Source of the DNA: a bacterium
GTDB taxonomy: Bacteria > Patescibacteriota > Minisyncoccia > Phycocordibacterales > UBA5272
Direction of reading: 5' to 3'
DNA: 64,000 bases
Assembly (NCBI GenBank): GCA_043765155.1
Contig: JAYUJP010000001.1
Coordinates: 19,268-83,267, forward strand
Below are positions 16,204-48,258 of this stretch, in pieces. Every line of letters begins with the position of its first letter. The first letter of the stretch is position 1. The notes under the pieces were generated by a model. That model made no database searches and was not told the DNA's origin. It worked only from the letters and a program-made list of their open reading frames with translations. The translations under genes and the position numbers were made by a program.

Positions 16204-19176
16204 CTACTGGCACCCATCACATGTAGACTCGGGAGCTACTGTTATGTTATAGGCTGTTTTTGTTGCCGGCGCTGCACCCATATTGTATACTGCGGGCTGC
16301 GCAGGGTTAACCGTACTTGAGTTATTACTTGAAGCGGCGCTACTCATGCTTATCGGCTCTGGAGCTGCAGATATATTCATGGCTGATATTGGTGACGCTA
16401 CTGGACCAGGTATTTTTGTATCATTCATAATACCTACTACTGGATTATCAAGAGGTGTTGTATTTTTACTATCTCTCTTGTGTGTAGCTCCAAATTCTGC
16501 GCTGCTAACTGTACTCTTCTCAACCTGACTTGCTCCTAGTGAGCGGAGATAATAGGTAGTCTTGAGTCCCATTTTCCATGCGTACTCGTATATACTAGCC
16601 AAATCTTTTCCACTTGTACCTGCATAATATATATTGAGTGACTGTGACTGATCTATCCACTTTGCCCTATAGGCCGCAGTTCTGATTAGCCATTTTGCGT
16701 CTATTTCAAATACCTCTTTGTATTTATCTTTTAAGTCCTGAGGTACTGTTGTTATATTTCTAACACTACCATCATTATACTTTAGCTGGCCCATCATTTC
16801 ATAATCCCAAAGATTTCTAGCCTTTAAATCTTTTACAAGATATGGATTTATAACTATAAAGTCACCGTTCATATTTGCCTTTACGTATATATTTTTATAT
16901 ATTGGCTCTATACATGGTATTGACCCGACGATATTTGATATAGTCGCTGTCGGAGCTACTGCCATACAGTTACTGTTACGCATACCATAATTTTTAACAT
17001 TTGCCCTAACCAGTGACCAGTCAAGCTTACCCTCTTTTGAGACGTCGATATGCTCACCGCGTGACTCCTCGAGTAGCCTTAGCGTATCTTGAGGCATCAT
17101 ACCCCTATCCCATTTACTACCCTTATAACTCTCATATGCTCCGCGTTCTTTTGCCAGCTCGCTACTTGCGAGTATTGCATTATAAGATATAATCTCCATA
17201 CTCTCGTCTGAGAATATTACCGCTTGCTCACTATCAAAATTAATATTTAACTTGTATAGTGCGTCATGGAAACCCATCACTCCAAGTCCGACCGGCCTAT
17301 GTCTAAAGTTAGAATTTTTAGCCTCAATGGTTGGGTAAAAATTAATATCTATCACGTTATCGAGCATACGCATCGCGGTCTTAATAGTACTAGCGACTAG
17401 GTCCTTGTCGAGAGCGCCGTTTATAATATGCGCTTCATAATTAAATGAACCCAAATTACATACTGCGGTCTCCTCTAGGTTATTATTAAGAGTAATCTCT
17501 GTACACAGATTAGAATTACGCACTATACCGGCATGATCCTGAGGTGATCTTACATTTGATGGGTCCTTAAAAGTAATCCAAGGATGCCCTGTCTCAAATA
17601 GCATTGTTATCTGCTTTTTCCAAAGATCGCGCGCCTTCATCTCTTTGAATAATTTTATCTCACCAGCTTTCGCCTTAGCTTCATAAGCTATATAATTATT
17701 TTCAAAGTCCTTACCATAACTCTCGGTTAATAGTGGCACCTCTTCTGGTGAAAATAGTGTCCAGGCTCCGTCCTCACGCACACGCTTCATAAATGTATCT
17801 GAGATCCATAATGCAGTATTCATGTCATGTGTCCTACGTCTCTCGTCTCCAGTATTTTTACGTAGCTCAAGGAACTCCTCCACATCTAGATGCCAATTCT
17901 CAAGATACACGCACGCCGCCCCTCTTCTTCTGCCTGATCTATTAATAGCAACTGTCGAGCTGTCAGCTATTTTTAGAAAAGGTATAATACCATTACTCTT
18001 GATACCTGACCCCTTAACTAGTGCTCCGCTCGCACGTACATTGGTCCAATTAGTTCCTATACCGCCGGCCCATTTAGAGAGCTGTGCATTGTCCCCATAT
18101 ACTTTGTATATACTCTCCAGATCATCTCCAACACTATTTAGATAGCAAGATGATAGCTGTGGGTGATGTGTACCTGCATGAAATAATGTAGGTGATGATG
18201 GTACAAACTTCATAGTGGACATAACATTATAGAACTCTACAGCTTTTTCATTTTTATTTTCCGCTTTTTCTGATATAGCTAGGCCCATAGCTGTTCTCAT
18301 CCAGAAACCCTGAAGATCCTCAAGTATACGCCTAGTATCATTTGTATCCCTGACAAAATATCTCTCGTACAGTGTCTGCGTACCCATATACATCATAAGG
18401 TCATCACGCTTATAGTCCATAGCGTCTACTATCTTTTCTAGGTCAAAGTCATTCATTCTTGGATCTATATAACCCTTCTCTATTCCAAATTTTAAATTCT
18501 TGTTAAAAGATTGACGTAGAGAGCTATGTAGCTTATTATGATCTTTTATTTTTTCACCAACATGCTCAGCATACACGTCACGCATAAGTAATCTTGATGC
18601 TACATAACTATAAGCCGGGTCCAACTCTATCATTGAGCGCACTATCATAACTACTAGCCTAGCTAATTCTTTTGTGGTTATACCATCATGAACCTCCAGC
18701 TTTATCTGTGATATTATCTTTTCTATGTCTATCTCTTTTTCAAATCCGCCCACCACATAACCTAGTGACTTTCTCATTTTCTTTTCTGAAAAGCCCTGCA
18801 TTCTGCCATCACGTTTTGTTACCTTAAGCGCGCTCTCTTCTAATTTTTCTAGGTCCTCTAGCTTTTTCTCATCACGTATTTTCTGATGCTCATATCTGTA
18901 TATAATGTATTCCTTAGCTACATCAAAAAATCCTGCACTCATTATGTGCTTCTCGACAAGGTCCTGCACATGCTCCACACTAGGAGTATATTCCTCACGT
19001 GTCATAGCCTCAAGCTCTAGCTCTTTTTGTACTAGCTCACTAATATGCTTAGATACTTGCGCGTGCTCATCACGAGTGATTTGTATAAAAGCTTTCTTAA
19101 CTACATTTTCTATTTTTGACATTTCAAATGGGACTACTTCATTATTTCTTTTTTTGATAAAAGTTAAAGGATTCAT
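16204..19176 (-). CDS. nrdA: Class I ribonucleotide reductase large (alpha) subunit. It has an N-terminal ATP-cone and a C-terminal low-complexity tail of about 110 aa ending in CDGCQ.
   Basis: N-terminal ATP-cone (VVPFEMSKIENVVKKA...). Catalytic-core motifs include NLCTEI, PTATIS and SCYLNS. The C-terminal CxxC redox pair is present. Confidence 0.9.
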   Translation of the reverse strand: MNPLTFIKKRNNEVVPFEMSKIENVVKKAFIQITRDEHAQVSKHISELVQKELELEAMTREEYTPSVEHVQDLVEKHIMSAGFFDVAKEYIIYRYEHQKIRDEKKLEDLEKLEESALKVTKRDGRMQGFSEKKMRKSLGYVVGGFEKEIDIEKIISQIKLEVHDGITTKELARLVVMIVRSMIELDPAYSYVASRLLMRDVYAEHVGEKIKDHNKLHSSLRQSFNKNLKFGIEKGYIDPRMNDFDLEKIVDAMDYKRDDLMMYMGTQTLYERYFVRDTNDTRRILEDLQGFWMRTAMGLAISEKAENKNEKAVEFYNVMSTMKFVPSSPTLFHAGTHHPQLSSCYLNSVGDDLESIYKVYGDNAQLSKWAGGIGTNWTNVRASGALVKGSGIKSNGIIPFLKIADSSTVAINRSGRRRGAACVYLENWHLDVEEFLELRKNTGDERRRTHDMNTALWISDTFMKRVREDGAWTLFSPEEVPLLTESYGKDFENNYIAYEAKAKAGEIKLFKEMKARDLWKKQITMLFETGHPWITFKDPSNVRSPQDHAGIVRNSNLCTEITLNNNLEETAVCNLGSFNYEAHIINGALDKDLVASTIKTAMRMLDNVIDINFYPTIEAKNSNFRHRPVGLGVMGFHDALYKLNINFDSEQAVIFSDESMEIISYNAILASSELAKERGAYESYKGSKWDRGMMPQDTLRLLEESRGEHIDVSKEGKLDWSLVRANVKNYGMRNSNCMAVAPTATISNIVGSIPCIEPIYKNIYVKANMNGDFIVINPYLVKDLKARNLWDYEMMGQLKYNDGSVRNITTVPQDLKDKYKEVFEIDAKWLIRTAAYRAKWIDQSQSLNIYYAGTSGKDLASIYEYAWKMGLKTTYYLRSLGASQVEKSTVSSAEFGATHKRDSKNTTPLDNPVVGIMNDTKIPGPVASPISAMNISAAPEPISMSSAASSNNSSTVNPAQPAVYNMGAAPATKTAYNITVAPESTCDGCQ

Positions 19177-19550
19177 ATTTTTTTGTAAATTGTTTTTATA
19201 ATAATTTGACTATAAACTTGGCAGTTTCTAATATTAGTATATTACTACAAAAAATAGATAACTTTACAACACTTTTTGCGTATGTAAATAGTATTTTAAT
19301 CAAAACAAAAATAACTTTAACATGGGTACTAATAATGTCAAATAAAATACGCAAAATATTTTAAAATAAAGCTTAAAATAAACTTCTAAGCATAAATTAA
19401 ACTATTTTTTAGCAAAACATAATGTATATTTTGAAAAGTTATAGGATTATAAAAGTTATACACAGAGAAAATATTAAGTTGCTATTTTTATATATCTGTG
19501 TTATTATTTTATTGGATTTTGAATTTTTAAAATTTTAAAGGGAAAGTCAA

Positions 19551-20036
19551 ATGGGTAAAAAAGTATCAGCATACACCAAGCAAATGAAAATACTGTTAGG
19601 TGCTAACTCAGAACTAACAGCTAAAAATAAGCGCATGCAAAAAATAATTAATGATTTTCAAGAATCTGTCGCAAATCTTATGTCTAATCTGGACCATGAG
19701 ATATATCTTTTGAATGTTGAACCTGTAAGTAACGCACTTTTAAGCAGGCAGATAAAAGATTTGTTAACTTTAAATGTTGAACCTATAAGTAACGCACTTT
19801 TAAGCACGCAAATAAAAGATTTGGTAAATATAGAAGTTAGAACAAAAAACTGCCTGCGCGGCGATGGTATACATTTTGTGGGTCAATTAGTGCCCCTTAC
19901 GGAAAATAAACTTTTAAGAATACAACATTTTGGCCCTCAGTCTTTACATAGACTAAACAAAATTCTTGCTTTGCATAACCTAAGCCTAGGTATGAGTGTA
20001 GGCGACTGGGAACCACCACAAGAACAAAAAAATTAA
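19551..20036 (+). CDS. Orphan RNA polymerase alpha-subunit C-terminal-domain (alphaCTD)-like protein with an N-terminal coiled-coil region and an internal 20-aa duplication.
   Basis: The C-terminal IEVRTKNCLRGDGIHFVGQLVPLTENKLLRIQHFGPQSLHRLNKILALHNLSLGM matches the alphaCTD pattern (LSVRSxNCLKxxxIxxxGDLVxxTExELLxxxNxGxKSLxEIxxxLxxxGLSLGM). Confidence 0.55.
   Translation: MGKKVSAYTKQMKILLGANSELTAKNKRMQKIINDFQESVANLMSNLDHEIYLLNVEPVSNALLSRQIKDLLTLNVEPISNALLSTQIKDLVNIEVRTKNCLRGDGIHFVGQLVPLTENKLLRIQHFGPQSLHRLNKILALHNLSLGMSVGDWEPPQEQKN
19713..19832. repeat. Tandem direct duplication, 2 x 60 bp at about 90% identity, inside the alphaCTD-like gene.
   Basis: aatgttgaacctgtaagtaacgcacttttaagcaggcagataaaagatttg... 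is repeated as aatgttgaacctataagtaacgcacttttaagcacgcaaataaaagatttg... The protein repeat is LNVEP(V/I)SNALLS(R/T)QIKDL. Confidence 0.7.
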
Positions 20037-20123
20037 GCAAAATTTTCTGTGTTAGTCTCTGAAGATATAGAAAACACCTAGACCTGTAGCATTACTATGT
20101 TACGGGTTTTTATTTTATTATTT

Positions 20124-21422
20124 TTATTTTTTTATAAAATTATCAGCCCTCTTTTCTTTGTGATACTTGATCGCGAATCTATGAGCTTCAGAGTTAGCGA
20201 GTATTATGGACTTTTTGAGTCTCTCTATTTCTATTTTTGTCTTGGCTATATTTGTAGACTCTAGGCCGAGTACCTCACGCGCTTTGTGCTTGTCATCTTT
20301 TACAACGCTACAAGTAGCTACTAATATATTCATACTCGCGAGCACCTTTTCGCCAATATTTTTCTGACCCTCTCCGCCGTCAAATACAACCAAGTCAGGC
20401 GTAGGCCACTCAGTATGTTTGAATCTCCTTTTCATCAGCTCGACTATACCAGCATAATCATCATTAACATTTTCAACCAGCTTAAACTTTCTATACTCAG
20501 CTATATCTTTTTTACCCCCGGTTACAACGGTCATAACCCCAACACGCGCAGTGCCTGACATATGAGCTACGTCATAGGCCTCAATACGAAAATCTTTACC
20601 CTTAAAGTCCACTATCTCCTCATCCTTGATCAGCGACACGTCACGTATATGATCTAGAGCCCATAATGTGTTTCTCATTTTAGCCGCCATTTCAAAGTTC
20701 TCCTTTTTAGCATAATCCTCCATATCACTTTTTACATCTCTTTTAATTTTGGACATATTGCCCTCAAAAAGATCCTTGATATGCTTGATATTTTTTTTAT
20801 AATCTTCTTTTTTAATTAGTCCTACGCAGCATCCAGGACATAATCTTATCTGCGCGTTAAAACAAGGCTTGCTCATACCTATCTCACATCTATCACGAAA
20901 AGGGAATATCTTCCTTATTATTTTTATCGCGTCTTTTATTTGCATTCCATTTGTAAATGGACCATAAACTTTATCGACTTTTTCTATATTACCACTTGTG
21001 GCCTTTTTGCTAGCTACAAATCTCTTTTCATAATCACGTACGCGCATAGTCAGCACACGTGGATAATCCTCCTTGGTTATAACTACGCAGGTGTATGTCT
21101 TATTATCTTTTTCTTTGGTGTTAAATACTGGCTGATTTTTTTTGATCAGCTGATTCTCGAGCAGTAACGCCTCTAGCACGCTACTAGTAACCTGATAAGT
21201 CACATGTTCAGCAGCTAGCACCATGTTAACTATTTTTAATCCTCTGGTTTCTGAGATATCTTTTGCAAAGTAACTTTTTGTCCTGTCACGCAGATTAGTC
21301 GCCTTACCAATATACAAGATATTACCCAGATTATTATTAGCTTCATTTTTGTCCCCATCTCTAAAAAAGTACACTCCTGGTAGCTCGGGTAAATCTAATT
21401 TTTCTAGGTCTATCTTTTTCAT
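20124..21422 (-). CDS. uvrC: Compact UvrC-like excinuclease: GIY-YIG, UvrBC-interaction and RNase-H-like endonuclease domains, with no C-terminal (HhH)2.
   Basis: GIY-YIG at the N-terminus (LPELPGVYFFRD...ILYIGKATNLRDRTKSYF). EMAAKMRNTLWAL is a UvrBC-like motif. RIEAYDVAHMSG and LVVFDGGEGQ mark the UvrC endonuclease domain. At 432 aa it is about 170 aa shorter than the roughly 600-aa typical UvrC. Confidence 0.7.
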   Translation of the reverse strand: MKKIDLEKLDLPELPGVYFFRDGDKNEANNNLGNILYIGKATNLRDRTKSYFAKDISETRGLKIVNMVLAAEHVTYQVTSSVLEALLLENQLIKKNQPVFNTKEKDNKTYTCVVITKEDYPRVLTMRVRDYEKRFVASKKATSGNIEKVDKVYGPFTNGMQIKDAIKIIRKIFPFRDRCEIGMSKPCFNAQIRLCPGCCVGLIKKEDYKKNIKHIKDLFEGNMSKIKRDVKSDMEDYAKKENFEMAAKMRNTLWALDHIRDVSLIKDEEIVDFKGKDFRIEAYDVAHMSGTARVGVMTVVTGGKKDIAEYRKFKLVENVNDDYAGIVELMKRRFKHTEWPTPDLVVFDGGEGQKNIGEKVLASMNILVATCSVVKDDKHKAREVLGLESTNIAKTKIEIERLKKSIILANSEAHRFAIKYHKEKRADNFIKK

Positions 21423-32708: not shown

Positions 32709-33845
32709 TTAAATATTAAGATCAATATCTGGTATATTCCCGTACCACTTTAATGCATTTTGTATTCCTTCATGCAAAGAGTCGTCTGGTAAAACAAACT
32801 TTACAAACTGAGGAGCTTGAGAAAGAATTTCATTGCCACCAGCATTTTTTTCTTGATCGTAATGGTAAGAATGATTAGTAAAGAATATAAAATTATAATC
32901 TGATTTATTATTTACTGAGATGATTTTATTTTTCCGCTTAGCATTTTTTATAATGTCTTTAACCCAAGGAACATCTTCCATTCTTGACTTATTTTCTAAT
33001 GGACTATTAATATCAATAAAAATAATATATGGCATTAAACCACACTCTTCTTTTTCCAAAGCACTTGTTAAAAGCCCCTGAATATCACCTTTTTTTGACT
33101 TATACATATCAAGTATACCTAATTGATTTAACACTCCCTTACGATGCCTACTCTTTGCTTCAACTCCTATTTTCGTGCCACTAACTTGATGCTCGGCAAT
33201 AAATTCGCAATGCTTAGCGGTTGAATTATCTATCCAAGTTATATTAAACCCCAGTCTAGCAATAACTGCAGCAATCATTATCTCATATCTGACTCCTTGA
33301 TATTCATTAGTATTTTTTAATCTTTGAATAAGCTTATCTGGGATATTAGATACATGATCAAGAGTAAAAATGTCAAAAGCTAAAGAGTAAATAGATTTTA
33401 TATAGCCATTTGGATTTGTAGAATAAACACCTTCTCTTACTTTTACACCATTAAAAATAGCAGACCCTTTAAGCTTTATAACCTCTGTAAAAGCTTTCTC
33501 TAAAAAATTAAGTTCTTCTTTTTTATATTTAATTTCATTTAACCATTCTGGTCCTAGTTTTTCTAAAAGTATAAAAATACAAAAATCACTAAATGTTTCA
33601 TGTTTATTGTCTCTTTGGTAGATTCTATTTTTAATAGCCCATATTTTTTTATCTTTGAAGATAATAGGATTAACATAGTTAACGTAAATACCAACCTCTT
33701 TTAATTTATTATCTTTAAGTTCTTTTTTTGCAAGCATTTGTAGTGCCATATGACTAATACTTTCTTTTTTCATGAGGCAACACTTTTTATATTTCTTACC
33801 ACTAAAACAGTAACATTTTTCATTTCGACCTATTTTATTATTCAT
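32709..33845 (-). CDS. SEC-C-motif (zinc-binding) protein with a putative C-terminal PD-(D/E)xK nuclease-like core.
   Basis: N-terminal NEKCYCFSGKKYKKCC is the SecA-C-terminal metal-binding motif. RYEIMIAAVIARLGFNITWID...KIGVEAKS fits E...hhhD...hExK. The nuclease call is inference. Confidence 0.45.
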   Translation of the reverse strand: MNNKIGRNEKCYCFSGKKYKKCCLMKKESISHMALQMLAKKELKDNKLKEVGIYVNYVNPIIFKDKKIWAIKNRIYQRDNKHETFSDFCIFILLEKLGPEWLNEIKYKKEELNFLEKAFTEVIKLKGSAIFNGVKVREGVYSTNPNGYIKSIYSLAFDIFTLDHVSNIPDKLIQRLKNTNEYQGVRYEIMIAAVIARLGFNITWIDNSTAKHCEFIAEHQVSGTKIGVEAKSRHRKGVLNQLGILDMYKSKKGDIQGLLTSALEKEECGLMPYIIFIDINSPLENKSRMEDVPWVKDIIKNAKRKNKIISVNNKSDYNFIFFTNHSYHYDQEKNAGGNEILSQAPQFVKFVLPDDSLHEGIQNALKWYGNIPDIDLNI

Positions 33846-33916
33846 TTTAGTTACATTACAATCTATACAATTTTTTTAAGCTAAATCCTCAACAGTATCA
33901 AAAATATTATGATTGA

Positions 33917-34648
33917 CTATTCTATTCCAAAACTTTTTTTTAATTTTGCAATATCTGCTGGATTTTCAAATTCCTTCCTTTTTTGTTCTTCTTCTGCCTT
34001 TTTAATTTCATCTCTTAGGATCTCAAAATCTTTAATCCAAGCACCTTCAATAAAAGCATCTACGGAGTTTGGGTAATACTCAGTACCCCATTCCTTCTCG
34101 GAAAGACTTTCACTTACATGCAAAACTTTTTCTTCATTAAGAAACATTTCTAGGTCTCCCCAGTAGCTGTCTTCATGGTTACCTGTTGAATGGATAAATT
34201 TATACTCTCTTCCGTTCATCATTAAAAGAATACACTCTTCTCTACTTTGCTTTTCGTCAACTTCTTTTGCCTCAGTAACTATCGTAGGCACTGAGTCTCT
34301 TGGAGTATGTCTAATCCAGCTTGGGTAATAGCGTATAGAATCGTGATATAAAGCATCAACAAGTTGTGGTATACCAGACTTCATAGCTTGATCCTTTTTC
34401 TTTTCAGCAAGGTCTCTGATTCTCTCTGCTTCACTTTGTACGGCATTATTAATCGCCTCTCCTGAAGGATAGTTTTCTTTGCAAGGCTCTTCTTTTTTAG
34501 AGATTAAGTCTTTCTTTCTGTTACGTGAAAAAATCCAACCAATAAAGATAGCTCCCCAAAAACTCCATCCATTACCAGCCTTTAAAATCCAATAAAAAAT
34601 AAAGAAGAATGCCAATGATATTGCTAACCACTTTATATTTATATTCAT
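33917..34648 (-). CDS. Hypothetical membrane protein (2 N-terminal TM plus a soluble domain).
   Basis: Hydrophobic N-terminus (LAISLAFFFIFYWIL, FWGAIFIGWIF). No family recognised. Confidence 0.4.
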   Translation of the reverse strand: MNINIKWLAISLAFFFIFYWILKAGNGWSFWGAIFIGWIFSRNRKKDLISKKEEPCKENYPSGEAINNAVQSEAERIRDLAEKKKDQAMKSGIPQLVDALYHDSIRYYPSWIRHTPRDSVPTIVTEAKEVDEKQSREECILLMMNGREYKFIHSTGNHEDSYWGDLEMFLNEEKVLHVSESLSEKEWGTEYYPNSVDAFIEGAWIKDFEILRDEIKKAEEEQKRKEFENPADIAKLKKSFGIE

Positions 34649-34790
34649 AATTATTATTCTATGTTAAAAAATAACGAAGATTTTTATATTTTACAATGCG
34701 TTATCCGTTTAATTTGGTGCTTGGACTGGCTAGTAGTCCTGACTGGCTCCGCACTTGGGACGATGTCCGAAAAGCAATTATAGAAAATAA

Positions 34791-36113
34791 TTAAATTTCA
34801 AAAAAGTAGTAAGCTGGTAAATATAGGTTATCATTTCTTTCTTCTTGAAAATTAAAGGGGTCATTTATAAAAAAAGGAGTACTCCTCATTTCTTTATACT
34901 CGTCTAAGTTTTTAGCAAATTTCAAATGAATGACTCTTGTCTTTGCGACTTTATTTTCTTCACCAAGAATATATAATATTTCGTTAGAATACCTTTTATG
35001 ATCGCCTCCTGATATTAAAATTGCTCTATTTATCTCATCGTTAGAAGAAATATATCCACTTTCAATAATGCTTTTAATACTGCTATAATTTCCTGTTTGA
35101 ATACTCTGAGGCGAATATCTTAACAATTCAACAGCAACACATATTATTGGATTTGGCTCTAGGTCTCTTAATTTTAAAGACACGTAGCTCTGATTTGCAA
35201 TCCTAAGAGCAAGTTTTAATTTACGCATAGTAAATCCAGAGTAATTTCTAAACATTGCCGATATTAGATCTTGTAATATTATTAACTGCGCTTCATTTTT
35301 TAATTCAAAAATATCAGATAAAAATCCATTCAGGTTACTAACTTTATTTTTATAAAAATGAATATAATCCATACATTTAAAGTAAACCTCCTGTGTATTA
35401 ATATTTTCGTAGCTTTGTGTAGAAACTGGAACAATTGCAATAATCTGCTTATTCAATTCTGGTGATTTTATGAATTGTTTAAATGTCTCTAAAAAATAAA
35501 ATCCTCCTTGACCAGCTCTATCTATATCTTCTAGTACAAAAATAATTTTTTTCTTATTGTTATTCTCAAGTAATTTTAGAAAAATATCTTGCATCTCAAA
35601 AACTCTTGTGGCGGGAGTTTTGTCTATAATATCTTTTGACTTAGCTCCAACTATAGCGGTTAATGTTTTTATTATTAAACCAACACTTGGTGAAATTGTA
35701 CTAATTAATTCCGCGCCTGAATTTATAATATCGCTAGTAATTCCAATATTTGTCTTTTTACTATCGTCTGAATTACCGTCTAGTTTACACTTAATCTCTT
35801 TCTCTTTCCCGAACTGTTTTGCTGTAGCTAAAATTAGACCATCCCACAACTCTCTTTTATCTGGAAACTGCCAGGCGTCAAAGTCTACCCAGTACTCTTC
35901 TTCCTTTTTATCTTCTCTTTTATTTTTTACACTTTCAATTAGACTACTTTTCCCAATACCATAATCACCCACAATACCCAAAATAACAGAATTATTAAAA
36001 GTGTCAATTTTTTGACATAATTCTGAAATTGGAATTTGATTTTCCATCCGATCTTCAGTAGAAATCTTTTCTTCTAGTAGCGAGATATTTTTAATGAAGC
36101 CTTTAGTTTGCAT
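34791..36113 (-). CDS. KAP-family P-loop NTPase.
   Basis: Walker A GDYGIGKSS is followed by the KAP-specific YWVDFDAWQFPDKRELWDGLI (FNAW...W). Walker B is KKIIFVLEDIDRA. Confidence 0.6.
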   Translation of the reverse strand: MQTKGFIKNISLLEEKISTEDRMENQIPISELCQKIDTFNNSVILGIVGDYGIGKSSLIESVKNKREDKKEEEYWVDFDAWQFPDKRELWDGLILATAKQFGKEKEIKCKLDGNSDDSKKTNIGITSDIINSGAELISTISPSVGLIIKTLTAIVGAKSKDIIDKTPATRVFEMQDIFLKLLENNNKKKIIFVLEDIDRAGQGGFYFLETFKQFIKSPELNKQIIAIVPVSTQSYENINTQEVYFKCMDYIHFYKNKVSNLNGFLSDIFELKNEAQLIILQDLISAMFRNYSGFTMRKLKLALRIANQSYVSLKLRDLEPNPIICVAVELLRYSPQSIQTGNYSSIKSIIESGYISSNDEINRAILISGGDHKRYSNEILYILGEENKVAKTRVIHLKFAKNLDEYKEMRSTPFFINDPFNFQEERNDNLYLPAYYFFEI

Positions 36114-36544
36114 GTGTAAATTTTATTAAGTTATTTTTTGCTGGTATTAATATTTAGCAATTTTATTAAATTATATTTTACCATAAAAAGAATTTTTATT
36201 CAGTTTAAAATAGTAAACTTTTAGTACTGAAAGTAACTTAAATTTAATTACCCACCCCCTTAAACCTCCTATAATAGATCAAATACTCTATCGTATATAT
36301 AACTTAAATCACTTTTGCAGTACCTCTAAAAACCTGTGAAGCTGGGGTTTATGTAGTTTGTATCAAATACACAAAATAAGAGGCTCTTTTCTGCGTAATT
36401 TTTTGATTTAGGCCATGTTTTTACTTGTCACTCTTTGCTATGTCATTTATCTTTGAGGCATGCATGGTATTAAGCTTCTCTCTCAGATTTCTTATACGTA
36501 TTATTTGTTTTATTTTTTCTTGCATATATTATTTTTTTCTTATG

Positions 36545-37222
36545 TTATATGTTTTTAGCTTCCTGTTTTGTATCTCCGTTACAAGTATTCGCTGACCAAA
36601 AACCAAGCTTATTATTTCTAGCAAAAACTTCTGCCTCTTTATAATCTTTTTGATATTTATATGGTAGATTGTAGGTGTATTCGTGTGCGTATCCATCCCT
36701 AATCATTTTCTCTTGATAAGAAGTTCCATTTTCAAGAAAGACATATCTTAAGAGTCTATTATACTTATCTCTTTCACCTTGGCTTGGGTCTACTTCAAGA
36801 TACACTTGTTTATCCCCTAGAAGTTCTGTAGCTTTTTTAGATGCTTCTTTAGCGAAGCATTGAACTGGTTTTCTTGGGTCTTTTGTTTCAGGTGTATCAA
36901 TACCAATTAAACGAATAGTGATGGACTCACCATCAACTAATACTTTAATAGTATCCCCATCTACAACATCTAAAACTTTATAGAGTGTAGAAGTAGATGT
37001 TTTAATTTCTTTTACTTCAATCTTAGGCGTGTTTATGATGTTTTGACTAGGTATCTGGGTAGTTATTTTCTCCTCCGATGTTTTTATGATTGGCTTATTT
37101 ATAGATATATAAAAAACTAAAAAAGTTGATATAGCTAAAATAATAAGTAATAAGTCAGCTATTGTAATTTTATGTTCAAGAAATTTTTTAATCATATTAT
37201 TTTCTAGGCATTCTACCTCCAC
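36545..37222 (-). CDS. Secreted or membrane-anchored staphylococcal (micrococcal) nuclease homologue (SNase/thermonuclease).
   Basis: VVDGDTIKVLVDGESITIRLIGIDTPE...RDKYNRLLRYVFLENG...GFW contains the SNase catalytic and Ca-binding motifs. There is an N-terminal TM. Confidence 0.75.
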   Translation of the reverse strand: MEVECLENNMIKKFLEHKITIADLLLIILAISTFLVFYISINKPIIKTSEEKITTQIPSQNIINTPKIEVKEIKTSTSTLYKVLDVVDGDTIKVLVDGESITIRLIGIDTPETKDPRKPVQCFAKEASKKATELLGDKQVYLEVDPSQGERDKYNRLLRYVFLENGTSYQEKMIRDGYAHEYTYNLPYKYQKDYKEAEVFARNNKLGFWSANTCNGDTKQEAKNI

Positions 37223-37895
37223 TGTCTAGACACTCTTCTTTACTTGCATAAGCGGTAAAGTTCTGTGTTTTATAATAATAAGTTCCTCCTTTTGGATGAC
37301 ATATACCTGTTCTGCTTTTCTTTATAGGTGGATTTTCTTGGTCAATTTCTTCGACATTACCTATTTTATTGTCTGTAAGCTGCCTTGCATTCCCTACATT
37401 AGAGTTGTTATCAACTACGTTGCTTGTAGGCTTAGTTCCTGTAAGGTTAAATAATGATATGCCAAAAACAGTAATTAGTATCGCCGCAATGATAGATTTT
37501 TTACTAAATTTAGAAAGTATATTATTTACTATATCTTTTTTAATTGTATATTTCCCGTTTTCAAAAATTAAATCTTTAGGAGTTTTATTAAATTGTTTTG
37601 CAAGTATAAGATACGAAAAATACAGCTTGCATCTTTCTATTTCTTGGTCAGTTATATTTTTAAGCCCGCTAATTTCTAATCTTTCTCTGAAAGAGGCGTC
37701 ACCTCCGAACCCTCTAAACAATACCTTAAAGAGTGCTTTTATAAAAATACTTCTCCCTTTTTCTTTACTCTCTAAGCCAAAGATGGATTGCATTTCCAAT
37801 GCTCCAGCATCAATATCCGTTTCACCATTTGGTAAGTGAGTGGACTCTATTTTTTCATATATTTTTTTAGTAGTAGTTATTTTTTCTTCTTCCAT
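37197..37895 (-). CDS. Hypothetical protein with an internal TM and a Cys-containing C-terminal domain.
   Basis: ORF overlapping the SNase gene start by 26 nt, on the same strand. The C-terminus is GICHPKGGTYYYK...EECLDSGGRMP. Confidence 0.4.
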   Translation of the reverse strand: MEEEKITTTKKIYEKIESTHLPNGETDIDAGALEMQSIFGLESKEKGRSIFIKALFKVLFRGFGGDASFRERLEISGLKNITDQEIERCKLYFSYLILAKQFNKTPKDLIFENGKYTIKKDIVNNILSKFSKKSIIAAILITVFGISLFNLTGTKPTSNVVDNNSNVGNARQLTDNKIGNVEEIDQENPPIKKSRTGICHPKGGTYYYKTQNFTAYASKEECLDSGGRMPRK

Positions 37896-37946
37896 AAATT
37901 TTTATATTGTTGAGATTTGTTAAAAATACTTATTTGGTTCGTGTAT

Positions 37947-38291
37947 TTATTGTTGGCTTTCTTTATAATCTCTATAATTTTCTCTTTCCGTATCATACAT
38001 AACTTCAATCGTGTTTTTATTTGCCTCATCTACAACCTTGGTTAAATCTGAACAGATCTTTTTGCTATTGTATTTAATAACTTCTAATTCTTTGTTTTTA
38101 TTAAAATAATCTTCACACGGAGAAGTAAAGAAGTCCCCGTCCTCTGTGTTAGTTAAGTAATGCTTAACAGTTTCTATCTCTTTATCTTTTTGTATAAAGC
38201 TAAGAAAAGCTAAAAACAAGAGCGCAAAAAGCACCATCGTTACAAAGGGGTGTCTTTCGGAATAGCTCATAATTTTATTATTTGTGTTCAT
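37947..38291 (-). CDS. Hypothetical small membrane-anchored protein.
   Basis: N-terminal TM (FVTMVLFALLFLAFLSFI). Operon position. Confidence 0.35.
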   Translation of the reverse strand: MNTNNKIMSYSERHPFVTMVLFALLFLAFLSFIQKDKEIETVKHYLTNTEDGDFFTSPCEDYFNKNKELEVIKYNSKKICSDLTKVVDEANKNTIEVMYDTERENYRDYKESQQ

Positions 38292-38296
38292 ATAAA

Positions 38297-38599
38297 TTAA
38301 CTAAAAGAGCTTACTATTATTTTAGATAAGGTAGCTAATATAGATATCACTAAGCCAGATACTAACCACCAGTCCTGAGACTTTAAGTTATTTCTTGTCA
38401 AAAGAAAAGCTATAGGATATACGGGTAAAGCAAATATGACTCCACCAAAGACATAAGCAACAAAAGACCCTATAGATCCCACAGAAATAGGCCCACCCAA
38501 AATTATAAGATAGGCACCGAATATGGCACTTATTAAGATAAGTTTTAATATAATATTATTTTTTCTTATAAAGCTATCAGATACTACGTTATTTTTCAT
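38297..38599 (-). CDS. Hypothetical small integral membrane protein (3 TM).
   Basis: Hydrophobic through most of its 100 aa. It is the first gene of the co-directional cluster. Confidence 0.35.
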   Translation of the reverse strand: MKNNVVSDSFIRKNNIILKLILISAIFGAYLIILGGPISVGSIGSFVAYVFGGVIFALPVYPIAFLLTRNNLKSQDWWLVSGLVISILATLSKIIVSSFS

Positions 38600-38864
38600 A
38601 TATTTATATATTATTTATTAAGATTTGCTTACTTAATACGAAACAAAATAAGCACCCCAGTAAGGTGCTCACAAACCAATAGACTTGCTACTGATATGTT
38701 TCCTTACATAGGATGCCTATGTTGGACACATCAATAGCACTAAATAGACACTTTTTAAAGTGTAGTCTTGTTGGTTTATGAGCATATATATTATAACATA
38801 ATTTACTAAAATTTACCCCTCTCACACCCTCTCATAAAATGAGAAAAAATGGTAAAATATAAGT

Positions 38865-39689
38865 ATGGTAAAAATTAAGACTAATTCAATTTTTGCTCTA
38901 TCAGAAGTTTTACAGTACATATCTTATTCAATTCATGATAATATATACAAAAAAGATGACCCAGTAAATTATAGCTACTGGGGTGTAGCTTTCAGTAATA
39001 CCTATAGAGATCTAAGAATAAATAACAGGGAAGTTCTGAGTGGTTACAGTTTTGAAAGCGACGTAAATAATTTAGCTATTAATTCAGTAAAAACTACAGA
39101 GATAGATTTTTTTAGAAATATTTTTAATATTATTTTTACTCTTGAGGAAAAAGGGTTAATCGAAAACTCAGATATTTTTATCGGCACTATGCTTGCCTGG
39201 TTCTTAGACCCAGTAAGATCATTTTATACAAAAATACAAAGAGAAGGTGCTCTCAATGCTATAAATTTGATTTTAGATAGGTATTACTGGGTTATAAAAT
39301 ATAGTAATTCTAGAAAAAAATATATATTTGAAAGACAGGTAATGGTTGCTTCGGTAGATAAAGATGCTATTTATATTAATAACGAGAGGGTTTTTATAAC
39401 TAAAGGACACCTTAAATACAAAAAAGATAATGATGAAATTGAGAAAATTAAAACTAAGCCAGCAGATATAAAAATACTTATTTTTTTAATTAGCTCAGGT
39501 AAAGCAAATATTAATAATTGGTTTAAGATTAAAGATTTGGCAACAAAATTGGGTTTAAAAGCTGGAACAGTCTCTAACTCCTTTTCTTCTTTTAGAGGAA
39601 TTTCTAAAATTATTAAAAGTGATCTTTTTGAAGATCGTGGGATAGACTCCAAAGGTAAAGATTTTAGGATAAATCCAAAAGTTTTATAA
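38865..39689 (+). CDS. Hypothetical protein with a possible C-terminal winged-helix. Candidate island regulator or replication protein.
   Basis: It is the only plus-strand gene between the minus-strand cluster and the recombinase. The C-terminal KIKDLATKLGLKAGTVSNSF is HTH-like. Confidence 0.35.
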   Translation: MVKIKTNSIFALSEVLQYISYSIHDNIYKKDDPVNYSYWGVAFSNTYRDLRINNREVLSGYSFESDVNNLAINSVKTTEIDFFRNIFNIIFTLEEKGLIENSDIFIGTMLAWFLDPVRSFYTKIQREGALNAINLILDRYYWVIKYSNSRKKYIFERQVMVASVDKDAIYINNERVFITKGHLKYKKDNDEIEKIKTKPADIKILIFLISSGKANINNWFKIKDLATKLGLKAGTVSNSFSSFRGISKIIKSDLFEDRGIDSKGKDFRINPKVL

Positions 39690-40116
39690 GCATGCTCATC
39701 AGCTCCTTCACCAATTTTTAGTGAAGGTATATTTTGACGTAAAATAGTAAAGAGTATATTTTTTAATAACCAGTAAATTTTCTTATAATATAGGTAAATT
39801 TTTTCTTTTTACAGAACCCATTTTTATAATGGGTATTTTTGCTTGACAAGATATGTTGATGAATGAGTTAAAAGAAGAGTAATAAGTTAAATATAAATAT
39901 TACAGTTAAAAATACAGGTAAATAAAAACCTACGTCTATCTTTATCAAATCTATGTAGCAGTAACATTTCTAGTAAAGTCTACAGACTTACTCTTAATAT
40001 TACCGCCAGAAATAATTATACAAGAAATTAGATAGTAATAGTAAAAAGTTTATTTTTCATTTACCTTAACTGTGAGTTACTTACTTTTTCTTATTATAAA
40101 AAGCCCCCAACACATA

Positions 40117-40266
40117 CATGCAATTATCAGCAAAAGCAATTCAAGATCTAAGAATTGAGCTTCGTAGAAACTACGGCGCTAGTGTTGATATTGCTTTAGA
40201 CAATGAGGAAGTTAACAGGGTGGGTGTTCTAATGCTTAATCTTGTCGCTTCTAAATTATGTGCATA
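40117..40266 (+). CDS. Possible small ORF of 49 aa in the 1.1-kb non-coding stretch.
   Basis: Translation: MQLSAKAIQDLRIELRRNYGASVDIALDNEEVNRVGVLMLNLVASKLCA. No clear RBS. Confidence 0.2.
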
Positions 40267-40966
40267 GTGGTGTCCTTGGTCAAAAAATGTTTTTTATTTA
40301 TTCCCAAAAAGTTGAGGAGGCAAAAAAGACCTCAACATATCAAAAAGAGATATAGTTAGCAAAATATAACCGCAGTCTCGTATTTTGTATCAGAAAACAC
40401 TATATCAGTAAAACGCAGACTACGCTAGAAACTATTACTTGATTATCTGATTTTACAAAACCAAGTTCAAACTTATACAACGGCTCCAAAAGTGATACTC
40501 TTCAGAGTAAATAGAGGGGGATTAAATAAAAAATTACATAATATGATATAAACTTACTTTCAACATGTAAGCAGGTTGCCTTTTCTTACCAACTCACCAA
40601 ATGTGATAAACAAAACAAGGAAAATATGTACAAAACAAGAAAACAACACAAATCAAAAATGCTTGAGTTAAGAGCAGATAAGTTACTAAAAAATACAATC
40701 ATTAAAAATAACACAAAATATGAAAACAAGATACGTAAAAGTTAAACAATTATACACTCAAGAATATTTAGATAGCAAATTACCTGTTATCAAATTCTAG
40801 AGTTTGTGATAAAATAAATAAGCTACACCAGATCCAAAAATAATTCATAAAATCATCTAAAATATTTGTGAATAAAAACGAGGCAACGATGCGGATCCGG
40901 TGTAGCAACTTAATCTCAAAATATCGCTGCCTCATTTTTGTTTATAAACTAACTAATAAAAATAAT

Positions 40967-42670
40967 ATGTACGAAATAAATTATGGTGAACTTAAGGCAG
41001 TGAATTATAATCGTAAATCTTCTGAGTCAGAAGAGAAGCAAATACTATCTATAGACTCTCAGATTGATGAAAATAAAAAGATAGTGAGTCAATTGGGTGT
41101 TAAAAGTCTTGATATTCTGAGGGAGTCAAAGTCTGGTAAGATGTCAAATAAGAGACCAATCTTTACTCAAATGATTAAAGATATTAAGGATGGTAAGTAC
41201 GATAGCATTGTATGTTGGAAACTTGATCGTCTGGCTCGTAACATGATTGATGGCGGGGTTGTAATGGACATGTTACAGCGTGGGACTATCAAGTGCATAA
41301 TCACTCCTAGTAAGATTTATCATAGCAGCGAGAATACTCTATTACTCTCTGTTGAGTTTGGTTCTGCTAACCAATTCGTGCGTGACCTATCTGTAAATGT
41401 TAAAAGGGGTCAGACTAAGAAAGCGTCAATTGGGTTACCTCATGGTGTCGCTACACTTGGATTTTTAAATGACAGAGCGGGAGAAAAAGGAAATAAAAAA
41501 TGGCTTGTGGACGAAGATAGGCTATGGAAAATTCAAAAACTATTTGAAATGTTTTTAACTGGTAATTACTCGGCTAGCAGACTCTATGAATATGCCATAA
41601 ATGAGCTAAAATTGACTACAGTTAAGAGGAAAAGAACTGGGGGTAACAATATAGCTTTGTCTAGAATATACGATATATTTAAAGATCCCGTGTATGCTGG
41701 ATACTTCTTTTACGATGAGCAGAGATATGAACTAGATAAAAATTTACCCAGAATAATATCAGAGGCAGAATATGAAAAAGTAAAAAGTCTCTTATCAAGA
41801 AAAAATATACCTAAAACTCAACATCATAAACCTGTATACTCTGGCTATATATCTTCTCCCCTTGGGGAATATATTGGCGGAGATATAAAAAAGCAACTTA
41901 TTTGTGATTGTAAGTTCAAATTTGCTTACTCTAAAAGAGAAACCTGTCCTAAATGTCTTGTTGAGATAAGTAAGCTGTCGAACCCAAAGTTTTTAGAATA
42001 TAGAAAGTATATAAACATAAAAAGAAAGAAAGCTAAGATCCTAGATAGAACCATAAAAGTAAAATCTATAGAAGAGTCTTCTATAGATAGTCAGCTGTCT
42101 AATCATATTGAACAGAGTTTATTTTTTGCAGACGAGGTTCTTGGGTGGGCTAAAAAATATATACATGAATTAGAAAACATAGAAATGAGAAACAAAATTC
42201 TCTTTGAGAGAAATAAAGAAAGCAGGAAAATAGAGTTATCTGATAAAAAGTCAAAAATGAGAAGCAGGCTCTATGAAAATCAAATTACTAACAGTGAGTA
42301 TGGCGAAGATCTGATTAAATTAGAAAAAGAATATTCTGATACAAAAGAAGAAATAGGCGACGCAAAGATAAACTGGATTGATAAGCTAGATAAAATTATA
42401 TCAGTAAGTAAAATTGCAAGGGACACTATCCTCAATGGAACCTATAATGAAAAAAGACAACTACTTTCAGACTTTAGTCCTAACCTAGTCTGGGATGAAG
42501 AAAAACTCTTAATTAACAATAATTATTTGATAAATAAAATTATTGTGGCCATAAAAGTCTCAAATCAAGAATTTGCAAAGTACGAACCTAATTTAAGCTT
42601 TGATATACAAGGCTTAAATGAAAAAACACCCCTTAAAAGAGATGATTTTTCTATTATGCTCCGTGAGTAG
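40967..42670 (+). CDS. Large serine recombinase with resolvase/invertase catalytic domain, recombinase domain and a C-terminal zinc-ribbon/coiled-coil. The likely start is MYEINYG. The longer ORF from 40868 is probably not translated.
   Basis: The catalytic N-terminus AVNYNRKSSESEEKQ...SIDSQ (Ser nucleophile region) and DSIVCWKLDRLARN are present. CPKC marks a zinc ribbon. The stop codon overlaps tRNA-Asn. Confidence 0.8.
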   Translation: MYEINYGELKAVNYNRKSSESEEKQILSIDSQIDENKKIVSQLGVKSLDILRESKSGKMSNKRPIFTQMIKDIKDGKYDSIVCWKLDRLARNMIDGGVVMDMLQRGTIKCIITPSKIYHSSENTLLLSVEFGSANQFVRDLSVNVKRGQTKKASIGLPHGVATLGFLNDRAGEKGNKKWLVDEDRLWKIQKLFEMFLTGNYSASRLYEYAINELKLTTVKRKRTGGNNIALSRIYDIFKDPVYAGYFFYDEQRYELDKNLPRIISEAEYEKVKSLLSRKNIPKTQHHKPVYSGYISSPLGEYIGGDIKKQLICDCKFKFAYSKRETCPKCLVEISKLSNPKFLEYRKYINIKRKKAKILDRTIKVKSIEESSIDSQLSNHIEQSLFFADEVLGWAKKYIHELENIEMRNKILFERNKESRKIELSDKKSKMRSRLYENQITNSEYGEDLIKLEKEYSDTKEEIGDAKINWIDKLDKIISVSKIARDTILNGTYNEKRQLLSDFSPNLVWDEEKLLINNNYLINKIIVAIKVSNQEFAKYEPNLSFDIQGLNEKTPLKRDDFSIMLRE

Positions 42671-42730
42671 GGATCGAACCTACGACCAATTCCTTAACAG
42701 GGAACTGCTCTACCGCTGAGCTATCACGGA
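42659..42730 (-). tRNA. tRNA-Asn (anticodon GTT).
   Basis: The minus strand reads TCCGTGATAGCTCAGCGGTAGAGCAGTTCC-CTGTTAA-GGAATTGGTCGTAGGTTCGATCCCTACTCACGGA+G. The cloverleaf has a GGTTCGATCC T-loop. The 3' 12 nt overlap the recombinase stop. Confidence 0.85.
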
Positions 42731-46512: not shown

Positions 46513-48258
46513 ATGCAAAAATTTGGAAGAAGTAACTTTAAACAAAACACAACATTAGTCGACACAAAAAGATCGGCTCATATATCAAACATAAAAGATG
46601 GTGACTACAGGATAATCAATCTTGGTGGTACTGAGGAGTGCGGCAAAAATATGACGCTCATAGAGTATAAAAACAGTATACTAATCATAAATGCTGGTGC
46701 CCAATTTTCAGCTAGCTCAATGCCTGGTGTTGACTTTATAATACCAAATATAAAATATCTCGAGGAAAATAAAGACAAGATAAAAGGTGTAATATTTACA
46801 ACTAGTACTCTGGAGTATAGCGGAGCCTTTCCTTTTATAAATGAAATGTTAAATTTTCCGCGCGTATATGGTAGACATTTTACAAATACACTTATACAAA
46901 AAAGAATTGAGAATAAGGGGCTAATCTGCAAGAACGACTTTATACCTGTAGAGGATAATATATCTCTGAATATTGGTGACTTTAAAGTTAGATTTTCAAA
47001 TACTCAGTCCTCTACTCCAGACTCTATGAATATATCTATAGAGACTATAGAAGGTGATATCACTTATATGAGTGACACAAAGCTAGATAAGAATAATGTA
47101 AAAAATCTTGAGACTTTGCCTAATTTTGAAAATAACACTAAGACACTTTGCCTTATTGCTGACTCACTTAATAGTGAAGTAGGGATAAGTGAATTTGAGC
47201 TGTCTGACACAAAAGAAAAACTTAAGAAAGTATTTGCTGAGACCAAAAATAAAATATTTATAACTACTTTTGCTAATAATATATATCATATTATTAAAAT
47301 AATAGAGCTAGCCAAAGAAATGGGAAAGAAAATAATATTAGACAGCAAAACAGTAGAAGAAAATATATCTAGCGCCCAAGAGATTGGACTTATAGGTAAA
47401 ATAGATGACGTAGTCATAGATATACTTGAAAAAGATAAACATAAATCAAGTGACCTTATATATATAGTAACAGGCGAAGAAGGACGTGAGATGGATACTA
47501 TACTCAAAATAGTCGAGACTGATTACAAGGGTATCAAAATCGAGGACGGTGACATAGTAATAATGGCAACACACCCTATTATACATAATCAGCGTGCAGC
47601 CCAGAACTTAAAAGATGGACTGTCACGTGCCGGAGCTGATACTATACATTATAAGTATAGCGATATACTTATAACTCAATCAGGTAGCGGCGAGGACCTA
47701 GCCAAGATACATCGTGCCCTTACACCAAAATTCTTTATACCTATGGCTGGTTGTCACTATATGTTACGCGTACATGCTGATATAGAGAGAAGACTAGGAA
47801 CCCCTGAAAACCATATCATAATACCTGATAATGGTATGATAATCGAGATACGTGATAACTGTCAGCGTATATCTAACACCCGTGAAAAAGTAGATACCGA
47901 GGTTGTAGTAGTGGATGGGAACAAAATAGGTAAGCTGCATAATGTGGTACTAAAAGATAGAGAAATACTAGGAGCCCAAGGAGTATTCTTTATAATATCA
48001 CTCATAGACATGCGCGGTCATAAGCTGAAAAAAGCTCCGGACCTAGCAACGCGTGGATTTGTATTTTTAAAAGAGTCACAAGAATTATTAGTCGGCGCTC
48101 GTGACATGTCCAAAAATATAATCGAGGAATATCTTTATAAAAATAATCACATAGAAATAGACGACATAAAGGAGGCTCTGCAGTCACAAATAGCCAAATA
48201 CCTTATGCTAAAAACAGCTAAGCAGCCAGTCGTAATACCTATAATTATAAGAGTCTAG
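46513..48258 (+). CDS. RNase J paralog (metallo-beta-lactamase/beta-CASP fold) lacking the canonical metal-binding motifs. Probably catalytically inactive.
   Basis: It aligns along its full length to the downstream RNase J. HGHLDH is replaced by TTSTLEY, HTGD by YMSDT, and SGHA by SGSGED. The TDST-like motif is ADSLN. Confidence 0.7.
   Translation: MQKFGRSNFKQNTTLVDTKRSAHISNIKDGDYRIINLGGTEECGKNMTLIEYKNSILIINAGAQFSASSMPGVDFIIPNIKYLEENKDKIKGVIFTTSTLEYSGAFPFINEMLNFPRVYGRHFTNTLIQKRIENKGLICKNDFIPVEDNISLNIGDFKVRFSNTQSSTPDSMNISIETIEGDITYMSDTKLDKNNVKNLETLPNFENNTKTLCLIADSLNSEVGISEFELSDTKEKLKKVFAETKNKIFITTFANNIYHIIKIIELAKEMGKKIILDSKTVEENISSAQEIGLIGKIDDVVIDILEKDKHKSSDLIYIVTGEEGREMDTILKIVETDYKGIKIEDGDIVIMATHPIIHNQRAAQNLKDGLSRAGADTIHYKYSDILITQSGSGEDLAKIHRALTPKFFIPMAGCHYMLRVHADIERRLGTPENHIIIPDNGMIIEIRDNCQRISNTREKVDTEVVVVDGNKIGKLHNVVLKDREILGAQGVFFIISLIDMRGHKLKKAPDLATRGFVFLKESQELLVGARDMSKNIIEEYLYKNNHIEIDDIKEALQSQIAKYLMLKTAKQPVVIPIIIRV

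Follow-up and report, generated by a model that had tools for sequence, protein, structure and literature searches.

The window, a stretch of 64,000 nucleotides, encodes a 161-residue protein that carries a true C-terminal domain of the RNA polymerase alpha subunit (alphaCTD) and is not RpoA. It is a further member of a catalogued and functionally unstudied class of orphan-alphaCTD proteins, from which it is set apart by three features: a predicted coiled-coil N-terminus, a fixed duplication of the arm that opens the domain and a fast turnover of the N-terminal sequence. The gene and the parts of its product are as follows:

19551..20036, + strand: orphan alphaCTD gene, a complete ORF with an ATG start, stop codon included, product 161 aa
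19551..19718, + strand: long amphipathic helix (residues 1-56), a predicted parallel coiled-coil dimerisation module
19713..19772, + strand: repeat copy 1 (residues 55-74, LNVEPVSNALLSRQIKDLLT), an extra tether segment, predicted helical
19773..19832, + strand: repeat copy 2 (residues 75-94, LNVEPISNALLSTQIKDLVN), the N-terminal arm of the alphaCTD fold
19833..20018, + strand: alphaCTD helix-hairpin-helix core (residues 95-156), identified by PF03118, PDB matches and Foldseek, with the C-terminal signature VGDWEPP

An alphaCTD detached from RpoA

The preliminary description of this DNA proposed that the C-terminal part of the protein has the fold signature of an alphaCTD and that the alphaNTD is missing; both proposals hold. 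PF03118 (RNA_pol_A_CTD), the sole Pfam match in the 161-aa protein, covers residues 81-139 with 46.9 bits against a gathering threshold of 23.8 (E=2.3e-12). With few exceptions, the chains recovered by a phmmer search of the whole PDB are RNA polymerase alpha subunits; the best matches, at about E=1e-12, are the alphaCTDs of Caulobacter (9ZUM) and E. coli (1COO, 3K4G, 1LB2), with much weaker scores for Firmicutes alphaCTDs (about 25 bits versus 51). An AlphaFold model built on a 56-sequence alignment (mean pLDDT 80.5, as compared to 37.6 in a single-sequence run) folds residues 95-150 into a compact helical domain (pLDDT 82-87). Foldseek places this domain on the alphaCTDs of E. coli, Vibrio and Caulobacter in the PDB, with an rmsd of 0.7-1.5 Å over 67-78 residues, a target-normalised TM score of 0.88-0.96 and 36-40% identity; a Caulobacter alphaCTD solved with AT-rich DNA bound is among the nearest structural matches. 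Residues 79-156 are a true alphaCTD, and structure prediction, which had been recommended as a check on the fold, yields an alphaCTD-like model.

Upstream of this domain, nothing of RpoA is recognisable. Neither of the alphaNTD domains, PF01193 (RNA_pol_L) and PF01000 (the insert), has a Pfam match in the window protein, and when a profile of the small family is compared to the RpoA profile by hhalign, residues 79-160 only are aligned, to RpoA columns 246-326 (E=4.5e-35): homology to RpoA is confined to residue 79 onward. The NCBIfam rpoA models give at most 67 bits where cut-offs of 228-523 apply. The best rpoA equivalog, NF003513, reaches 67.2 bits (cut-off 302) and TIGR02027 45.2 bits (cut-off 227.8); NF005841 (PRK07758), a model of a 95-aa hypothetical alphaCTD-like protein, also stays below its cut-off, with 22.4 bits against 115.

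Residues of the DNA- and protein-contact surfaces

Positions in the window protein are converted into E. coli alpha numbering by adding 168. The '265 determinant' of E. coli alpha consists of R265, N268, C269, G296, K298 and S299, whose roles are established by E. coli alpha genetics; R265 is the key residue for DNA contacts in the minor groove. By alignment, five of these six residues appear to be kept (R97=R265, N100=N268, C101=C269, G128=G296 and S131=S299), and in the DNA-binding hairpin K297 and K298 appear to be replaced by P129 and Q130, respectively. N294 is replaced as well, by H126, and changes are found at four more contact positions of the E. coli subunit: E261 (N93), V287 (N119), E288 (K120) and R317 (S149).

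No member of the orphan family departs from R97/R265 or C101/C269, and most keep G128/G296; the positions that contact activators in E. coli (the 261 and 287 determinants) show no conservation. The N268 position is taken by G in P0048, the ortholog from a sister species described below. Given this glycine and the P129/Q130 pair in the window protein, DNA binding of the UP type could be weak or altered.

The N-terminal helix

The N-terminus, earlier characterised as coiled-coil-like, lives up to that label: AlphaFold predicts a single helix at residues 2-56 (pLDDT 79-95), and one continuous heptad register, running from residue 1 to residue 75, has hydrophobic residues at 16 of its 21 a/d positions and Asn at a-positions 19, 26 and 61. 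The 3.5-residue hydrophobic periodicity is matched by 0.15% of shuffles (p ~0.0015). A heptad pattern of this kind is the signature of a parallel coiled coil, and the helix formed by residues 1-56 may dimerise. Searches outside the species found no homologue of the N-terminal 56 residues.

NCBIfam alignments of two small relatives (P0127 and P0048) and a visual similarity in two others (P0108 and P0190) gave a first hint that the helix might derive from the last helix of the alphaNTD. Such an origin was rejected: in hhalign comparisons to RpoA, the family, and likewise P0108 and P0190, align over the alphaCTD only.

A fixed duplication of the alphaCTD arm

Two in-frame direct repeats of 60 bp with about 90% identity had been reported in the linker. 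Tandem Repeats Finder recovers them at 19709-19827 (period 60, 2.0 copies, 91% matches, no indels, score 203); read in frame, the 2 x 60 nt occupy 19713-19832 at a spacing of 60 and are identical at 54 of 60 positions (90%), the six differences comprising four nonsynonymous and two synonymous ones. Only half of the array belongs to the linker. Copy 1, modelled as a helix at residues 59-73 (pLDDT 63-70), is an added tether, whereas copy 2 belongs to the alphaCTD as its N-terminal arm: HMMER and hhalign align it to the start of the RpoA domain, 'PILLRPVDDLEL' in E. coli (approximately residues 249-262). The first 20 residues of the domain have been duplicated, with the proximal copy serving the fold and the distal copy 1 forming an extra tether.

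The alleles are those of a 90%-identity cluster that holds seven distinct variants, each full-length at 161 aa. Inspection of these related alleles, the check that had been advised for the repeat, revealed two copies in all seven and no copy-number variant. Residues 102-156 are identical throughout, and within copy 2 the variants differ at just two positions, 79 and 94; copy 1 is the most variable part of the protein, with seven variable positions. The contrast between a variable copy 1 and a near-invariant copy 2 fits the division into tether and arm. At one repeat position, the two copies agree within each allele, reading A in the window gene and G in L001, a shared state that hints, if only weakly, at exchange between them.

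The exact 161-aa protein is encoded on eight contigs from at least six samples, as judged by contig names, and the styles of these names (k141_, scaffold, Logan) suggest that several assemblers were used. A collapsed or expanded repeat produced by assembly can be dismissed with near certainty. Nothing was found in its favour, the identical product recurs on these eight independently assembled contigs, all seven variants have 161 aa, the copies are distinguishable at six positions, and the array, 120 bp long, would fit within a typical short read.

The ortholog of the sister species has no such duplication. Together with the two copies in seven of seven variants, this absence dates the duplication after the split of the sister species and identifies it as a lineage-specific change, now fixed at two copies, rather than an ongoing polymorphism. 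The earlier suggestion of 'recent duplication or slippage' is therefore upheld as to the origin of the repeat in this lineage, and is at odds with its present fixed state.

The locus and its expression signals

The gene lies in a cellular genome. The window contains nrdAB, gatB, pheS, GAPDH, RNase R, murJ, folBKP, miaA and ahpC, along with ftsX, two RNase J genes, a photolyase gene and six tRNA genes. The alphaCTD gene is located between nrdA and a uvrC-like gene, outside the ribosomal-protein/rpoA/rplQ cluster; an hmmsearch of the six-frame translation of the 64-kb window found neither rpoA nor a second alphaCTD. The immediate neighbours are housekeeping genes, with no prophage context, and no PHROG matches were obtained for the window protein or its relatives. 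Species-representative genomes yielded no close relative of the window protein and, in a separate search, no copy of the window's exact tRNA-Thr. Homologues of the UvrC-like protein mostly have 403-433 aa; the two that carry organism names are assigned to a 'Patescibacteria group bacterium' (65% identity) and a 'Candidatus Parcubacteria bacterium' (57%), and from these two names the host is taken to be a Patescibacteria/Parcubacteria-like bacterium. The flanking genes and the candidate expression signals are listed here:

16204-19176, - strand: nrdA, with ATP-cone and RNR domains, divergent from the alphaCTD gene
19479..19507, + strand: sigma-70-like promoter TTGCTA-17-TATTAT with a TG extension, from a consensus scan, ~44 nt upstream of the ATG
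19537..19546, + strand: purine-rich Shine-Dalgarno-like stretch AAAGGGAAAG, its GGG 8 nt before the ATG
20080..20119, + strand: intrinsic-terminator-like hairpin and T-run, in the gap between the alphaCTD gene and the uvrC-like gene facing it
20124-21422, - strand: uvrC-like gene, 432-aa product, convergent with the alphaCTD gene

As stated previously, the alphaCTD gene and nrdA diverge from an AT-rich region; this region measures 374 bp (19177-19550) and has a GC content of 18.7%, compared to 32.9% in the whole window (the genome has ~33%). Scans of these 374 bp returned no pattern match to NrdR boxes and no Rfam match to an RNA element at E<=1. The putative promoter and the 5' UTR form a block that is ~84-90% identical in the sister species (L008), in which the surrounding intergenic DNA is unalignable, and AAAGGAAA of the Shine-Dalgarno-like stretch is conserved there too. 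At the other end of the gene, a terminator scan found one candidate where 0.2 would be expected, and L008 has a GC hairpin and T-run of its own at the same place. The ORF that is intact in seven variants, the constraint on the domain and on copy 2, the conserved promoter and the terminator together indicate that the alphaCTD gene is functional.

A fast-evolving gene in a variable slot

Change within the species is concentrated in the N-terminal half. Between the window gene and the 94%-identical L001 allele, codons 1-94 differ by 12 nonsynonymous and 5 synonymous changes, codons 95-156 by no nonsynonymous and one synonymous change. A rough dN/dS of ~0.76, estimated from the 12/5 counts, suggests nearly neutral evolution of the N-terminal half within the species; the pattern would also fit arms-race selection or a partly dispensable module.

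Most neighbour genes of L008, from uvrC to a GDSL lipase gene, follow the order of the window; the folBKP-trmB block is missing from L008, and a 319-aa gene is inserted upstream, giving the order nrdA, 319-aa gene, alphaCTD gene, uvrC. The conservation of the products ranges widely: 97% amino acid identity for UvrC (87% at the nucleotide level) and for AhpC, 72% for MiaA and 59% for the GDSL lipase. P0048, the 137-aa ortholog, is encoded at the same position and in the same orientation as the window gene. Just past the start codon, identity between the two genes is lost, and it returns with the EVRTK motif; the C-terminal 78 residues are 51% identical, and the R265 equivalent is residue 97 in the window protein versus residue 76 in P0048. 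The N-termini are unalignable (Smith-Waterman z=0.6); heptad periodicity is present in both.

In relatives with 66-80% UvrC identity, uvrC and nrdA adjoin and the orthologous gene is absent. The slot between them is empty in L013 and L017 and holds an ORF of 56 aa in L015 and of 76 aa in L018; these ORFs were considered as homologues of the coiled coil and rejected (Smith-Waterman z <=1.8). An ortholog in the same slot is found only in the sister species. With this distribution, a slot that is empty or unrelated in other relatives and the fast divergence, the alphaCTD gene is an accessory gene that is confined to this lineage, evolves fast and occupies a variable slot.

The wider orphan-alphaCTD family

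A HMMER search of 1.84 billion cluster representatives returned 2804 proteins at E<=0.001. The best 150 of the 2804 are dominated by non-RpoA multi-domain proteins with 2-12 tandem alphaCTD copies; metagenomes contain non-RpoA alphaCTD proteins by the thousand. Small single-domain relatives (P0048, P0108, P0190 and P0127) share a GDWxPP motif at the C-terminus, in the form VGDWxPP except in P0127, and the small orphan relatives lie in chromosomal surroundings that differ from one another. In a neighbour-joining tree of the domain, built from a short alignment with long branches and an RpoA sample without verified Patescibacteria RpoA, the window protein is grouped with P0048 (99% bootstrap), and these two join P0108 and P0190 in a 'VGDWxPP' clade (96% bootstrap) apart from 30 RpoA alphaCTDs. 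P0169 has the same helix-plus-alphaCTD layout as the window protein and is nested inside canonical RpoA; this placement suggests that the architecture arose more than once. Significant heptad periodicity recurs in P0048, P0127 and P0169, small helix-plus-alphaCTD proteins of unrelated bacteria.

Similar proteins are encoded by phages, with examples of 111-140 aa that have an N-terminal helix. In IMG/VR, three phage contigs encode 133-252-aa proteins made of an N-terminal helix and an alphaCTD, two of which adjoin an Erf-like annealing protein (recombinase) or a DNA polymerase. Among the predicted phage protein structures in BFVD are several alphaCTD-annotated proteins of 111-139 aa from uncultured Caudovirales, and Rhodococcus phage Finch and Mycobacterium phage Mithril are represented there by alphaCTD-annotated proteins too. 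A tblastn search of deposited phage genomes gave only six weak matches: three fall within rpoA genes annotated on large records that look bacterial, and others are to the same Salmonella alphaCTD (one) and to an unannotated 4.5-kb record (one). A scan of JGI metagenomes found no close family member, its matches being mostly canonical RpoA of ~325-350 aa, with some longer ORFs and contig-end fragments. In the literature searched, the function of orphan, stand-alone or mimic alphaCTD proteins is not the subject of any paper, and nothing relevant turned up under the sample accessions.

What the protein might do

The reading that we tentatively favour, while giving it a little less than an even chance, is a coiled-coil dimer with two tethered alphaCTDs that binds AT-rich DNA and perhaps competes with the alphaCTD of RNA polymerase. 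Dimerisation through residues ~1-56 would create a 'mini-alpha dimer' (mini alpha2), in which two alphaCTDs are flexibly tethered and the surface that binds the beta and beta' subunits is lacking. The equivalents of R265, N268, C269, G296 and S299 would contact A/T-rich DNA via the minor groove, and the duplication, which makes each tether 20 residues longer, would give the two DNA-binding heads more reach and spacing. The protein could be nucleoid-associated or regulate transcription, perhaps competing for UP-like sites with the alphaCTDs of the polymerase itself. The two functions put forward in the preliminary description, a regulator that binds UP elements and an RNAP decoy, are still plausible. 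In a genome with 33% GC, 'AT-rich DNA' names no specific target.

Alternatively, the domain might work through proteins. As an interaction decoy, it would titrate activators that dock on the alphaCTD, sigma region 4 or NusA-like factors, modulating transcription in its own cell or, in a variant of this scheme, in a partner or host cell. Either form is unlikely, though worth keeping in view. The loss of K297 and K298 from the DNA-contact hairpin weakens the case for DNA binding, and the phage counterparts sit beside an Erf-like recombinase or a DNA polymerase in replication/early-gene modules, a setting typical of factors that manipulate host transcription; a hypervariable N-terminal module beside a conserved domain points the same way. 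Against a decoy, R265 is invariant in this family and the known protein-contact determinants show no conservation. There is no candidate partner, and the gene resides among housekeeping genes, with neither a prophage nor PHROG matches.

A more elaborate and rather improbable scheme links the two modes of action: a conflict-driven alphaCTD mimic, from an orphan-alphaCTD lineage shared with phages, would keep a constant head for binding DNA or factors and swap or rapidly diversify its N-terminal coiled coil, allowing a Patescibacteria episymbiont, or a genetic element inside it, to hijack or block transcription by occupying UP-like sites or by sequestering factors that bind the alphaCTD. If this scheme were true, it would reveal a natural class of 'anti-alpha' regulators without a characterised precedent.

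It is improbable, too, that the gene is a functionless or decaying remnant of rpoA or of a mobile element in which the duplication reflects neutral slippage. A remnant would account for the patchy distribution, the fast divergence and the near-neutral N-terminal half, but not for an ORF that all alleles and the sister species keep intact, for an invariant alphaCTD protein sequence, for constraint on copy 2 and not on copy 1 or for a promoter block conserved within otherwise unalignable intergenic DNA. Moreover, the domain falls into the distinct orphan 'VGDWxPP' clade (96% bootstrap), unlike a recent fragment of rpoA.

A split alpha subunit is very improbable. According to this model, the organism's RpoA has no CTD or a degenerate one, and the window protein supplies the alphaCTD in trans; two alphaCTDs tethered to a dimerisation module would reproduce the geometry of the alpha2 dimer, and the 64-kb window offers no rpoA for comparison. 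An essential polymerase part would hardly be missing from relatives with 66-80% UvrC identity, or be 51% identical in one part and unalignable in the other between two species that share 97% identity in UvrC and AhpC, and the N-terminus has no detectable similarity to the alphaNTD.

Comparison with known systems

UP-element DNA and many activators dock on bacterial RNA polymerase at the alphaCTD, the classic site for such contacts, and a free-standing, dimerising alphaCTD would be a simple natural tool to compete with or to mimic this docking point. The locus is a compact test case: it offers a single domain, orthologs with and without the 20-residue duplication and conserved expression signals, and biochemistry on the window protein would inform on the whole orphan-alphaCTD class. 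Beyond its value as a test case, the gene is an ordinary lineage-specific accessory gene.

The nearest known counterpart is the alphaCTD of RpoA itself. The E. coli structures (1COO, 3K4G, 1LB2, 3N97) have the same fold as the window protein, which appears to keep the equivalents of R265, N268, C269, G296 and S299, and in the alpha2 dimer, too, a flexible tether connects the domain to a module that dimerises, an arrangement that is predicted for the window protein. By contrast, the window protein has no alphaNTD and hence no interface for assembly with beta and beta', its K297 and K298 equivalents appear as P and Q, conservation is lacking at the 261 and 287 determinants, and its gene is a fast-evolving accessory gene outside the rpoA operon. 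In databases, its closest kin are filed as 'DNA-directed RNA polymerase subunit alpha C-terminal domain-containing protein', a category of non-RpoA PF03118 proteins from bacteria and phages. Like the window protein, these are short, end in an alphaCTD and lack the alphaNTD; the closest of them are P0048, P0108 and P0190. Most non-RpoA PF03118 matches from metagenomes differ from it in having 2-12 alphaCTDs or TPR domains, whereas the window protein combines one domain with a predicted heptad coiled coil and a 20-residue duplication.

Leucine-zipper and other DNA-binding proteins with parallel dimeric coiled coils likewise place a heptad helix with Asn at a-positions beside a DNA-binding module, and by analogy a coiled coil in this position suggests a dimer with two DNA-binding heads. 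The connection between the two parts is different: in leucine zippers the basic helix is continuous with the zipper, whereas the head of the window protein is a globular helix-hairpin-helix domain held on a tether.

Variable gene content next to nrdA

Related genomes carry different genes in the slot between uvrC and nrdA (window 19177-20123): the slot holds the orphan alphaCTD gene in the window and an alphaCTD gene plus a 319-aa unknown gene in the sister-species locus L008, is empty in the relatives L013 and L017, and carries unrelated ORFs of 56 aa in L015 and 76 aa in L018. Approximately 340 bp located 5' of nrdA (window 19177-19531) align at ~71% identity with L015:4757-5095, from a relative without an alphaCTD gene. 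The similarity suggests that the stretch is a long conserved leader or promoter region of nrdA. Neither an Rfam family nor an NrdR-box match was found in 19177-19531.

On its other side, the slot is bordered by a UvrC-like gene:

20124-21422, minus strand, UvrC-like protein of 432 aa with GIY-YIG, UvrC_M and RNase H-like domains

A C-terminal helix-hairpin-helix pair is missing from this protein, and its TIGR00194 score falls slightly short of the cut-off (269.6 vs 285.45). The short form looks typical of the clade, since most of the 120 best UvrC-like homologs listed, with the two named Patescibacteria/Parcubacteria ones among them, are 403-433 aa long.

Within the alphaCTD gene, the two 60-bp repeat copies share a substitution at one position: at column 30 of alignment A1 (window 19742 and 19802), both copies have A in the window allele and G in the L001 allele, which hints at gene conversion between them.

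Other features of the window

The region 32709-42730 may be an integrated element or a defence island at a tRNA gene:

32709-33845, SEC-C-motif protein, upstream of the recombinase
34791-36113, KAP-family P-loop NTPase, upstream of the recombinase
40868-42670, plus strand, large serine recombinase, its 3' end inside tRNA-Asn
42658-42730, minus strand, tRNA-Asn, overlapping the end of the recombinase gene

Further along lie two tandem RNase J paralogs:

46513-48258, plus strand, first RNase J
48308-50236, plus strand, second RNase J

The first matches only the beta-CASP and C-terminal domains in Pfam and may be catalytically degenerate, since a metallo-beta-lactamase Pfam match is absent from it.

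alphaCTD proteins in phages and metagenomes

Small proteins (111-252 aa) that combine an N-terminal helix with an alphaCTD are encoded by predicted phages, both on IMG/VR contigs (L023:3542-4300, L024:3812-4234 and L025:351-752) and in BFVD (A0A6J7WD60, A0A6J5MNY7 and others). None of these phage proteins matches a PHROG family via its alphaCTD; a gene for an Erf-like recombinase or for a DNA polymerase lies next to two of them. Among metagenomic cluster representatives found with HMMER, P0003-P0030 include large proteins in which the alphaCTD recurs many times in tandem; examples are P0003 (1031 aa, 12 matched stretches) and P0004 (1788 aa, 7 stretches), and some proteins of this kind, P0141 and P0181, also carry fused TPR repeats.
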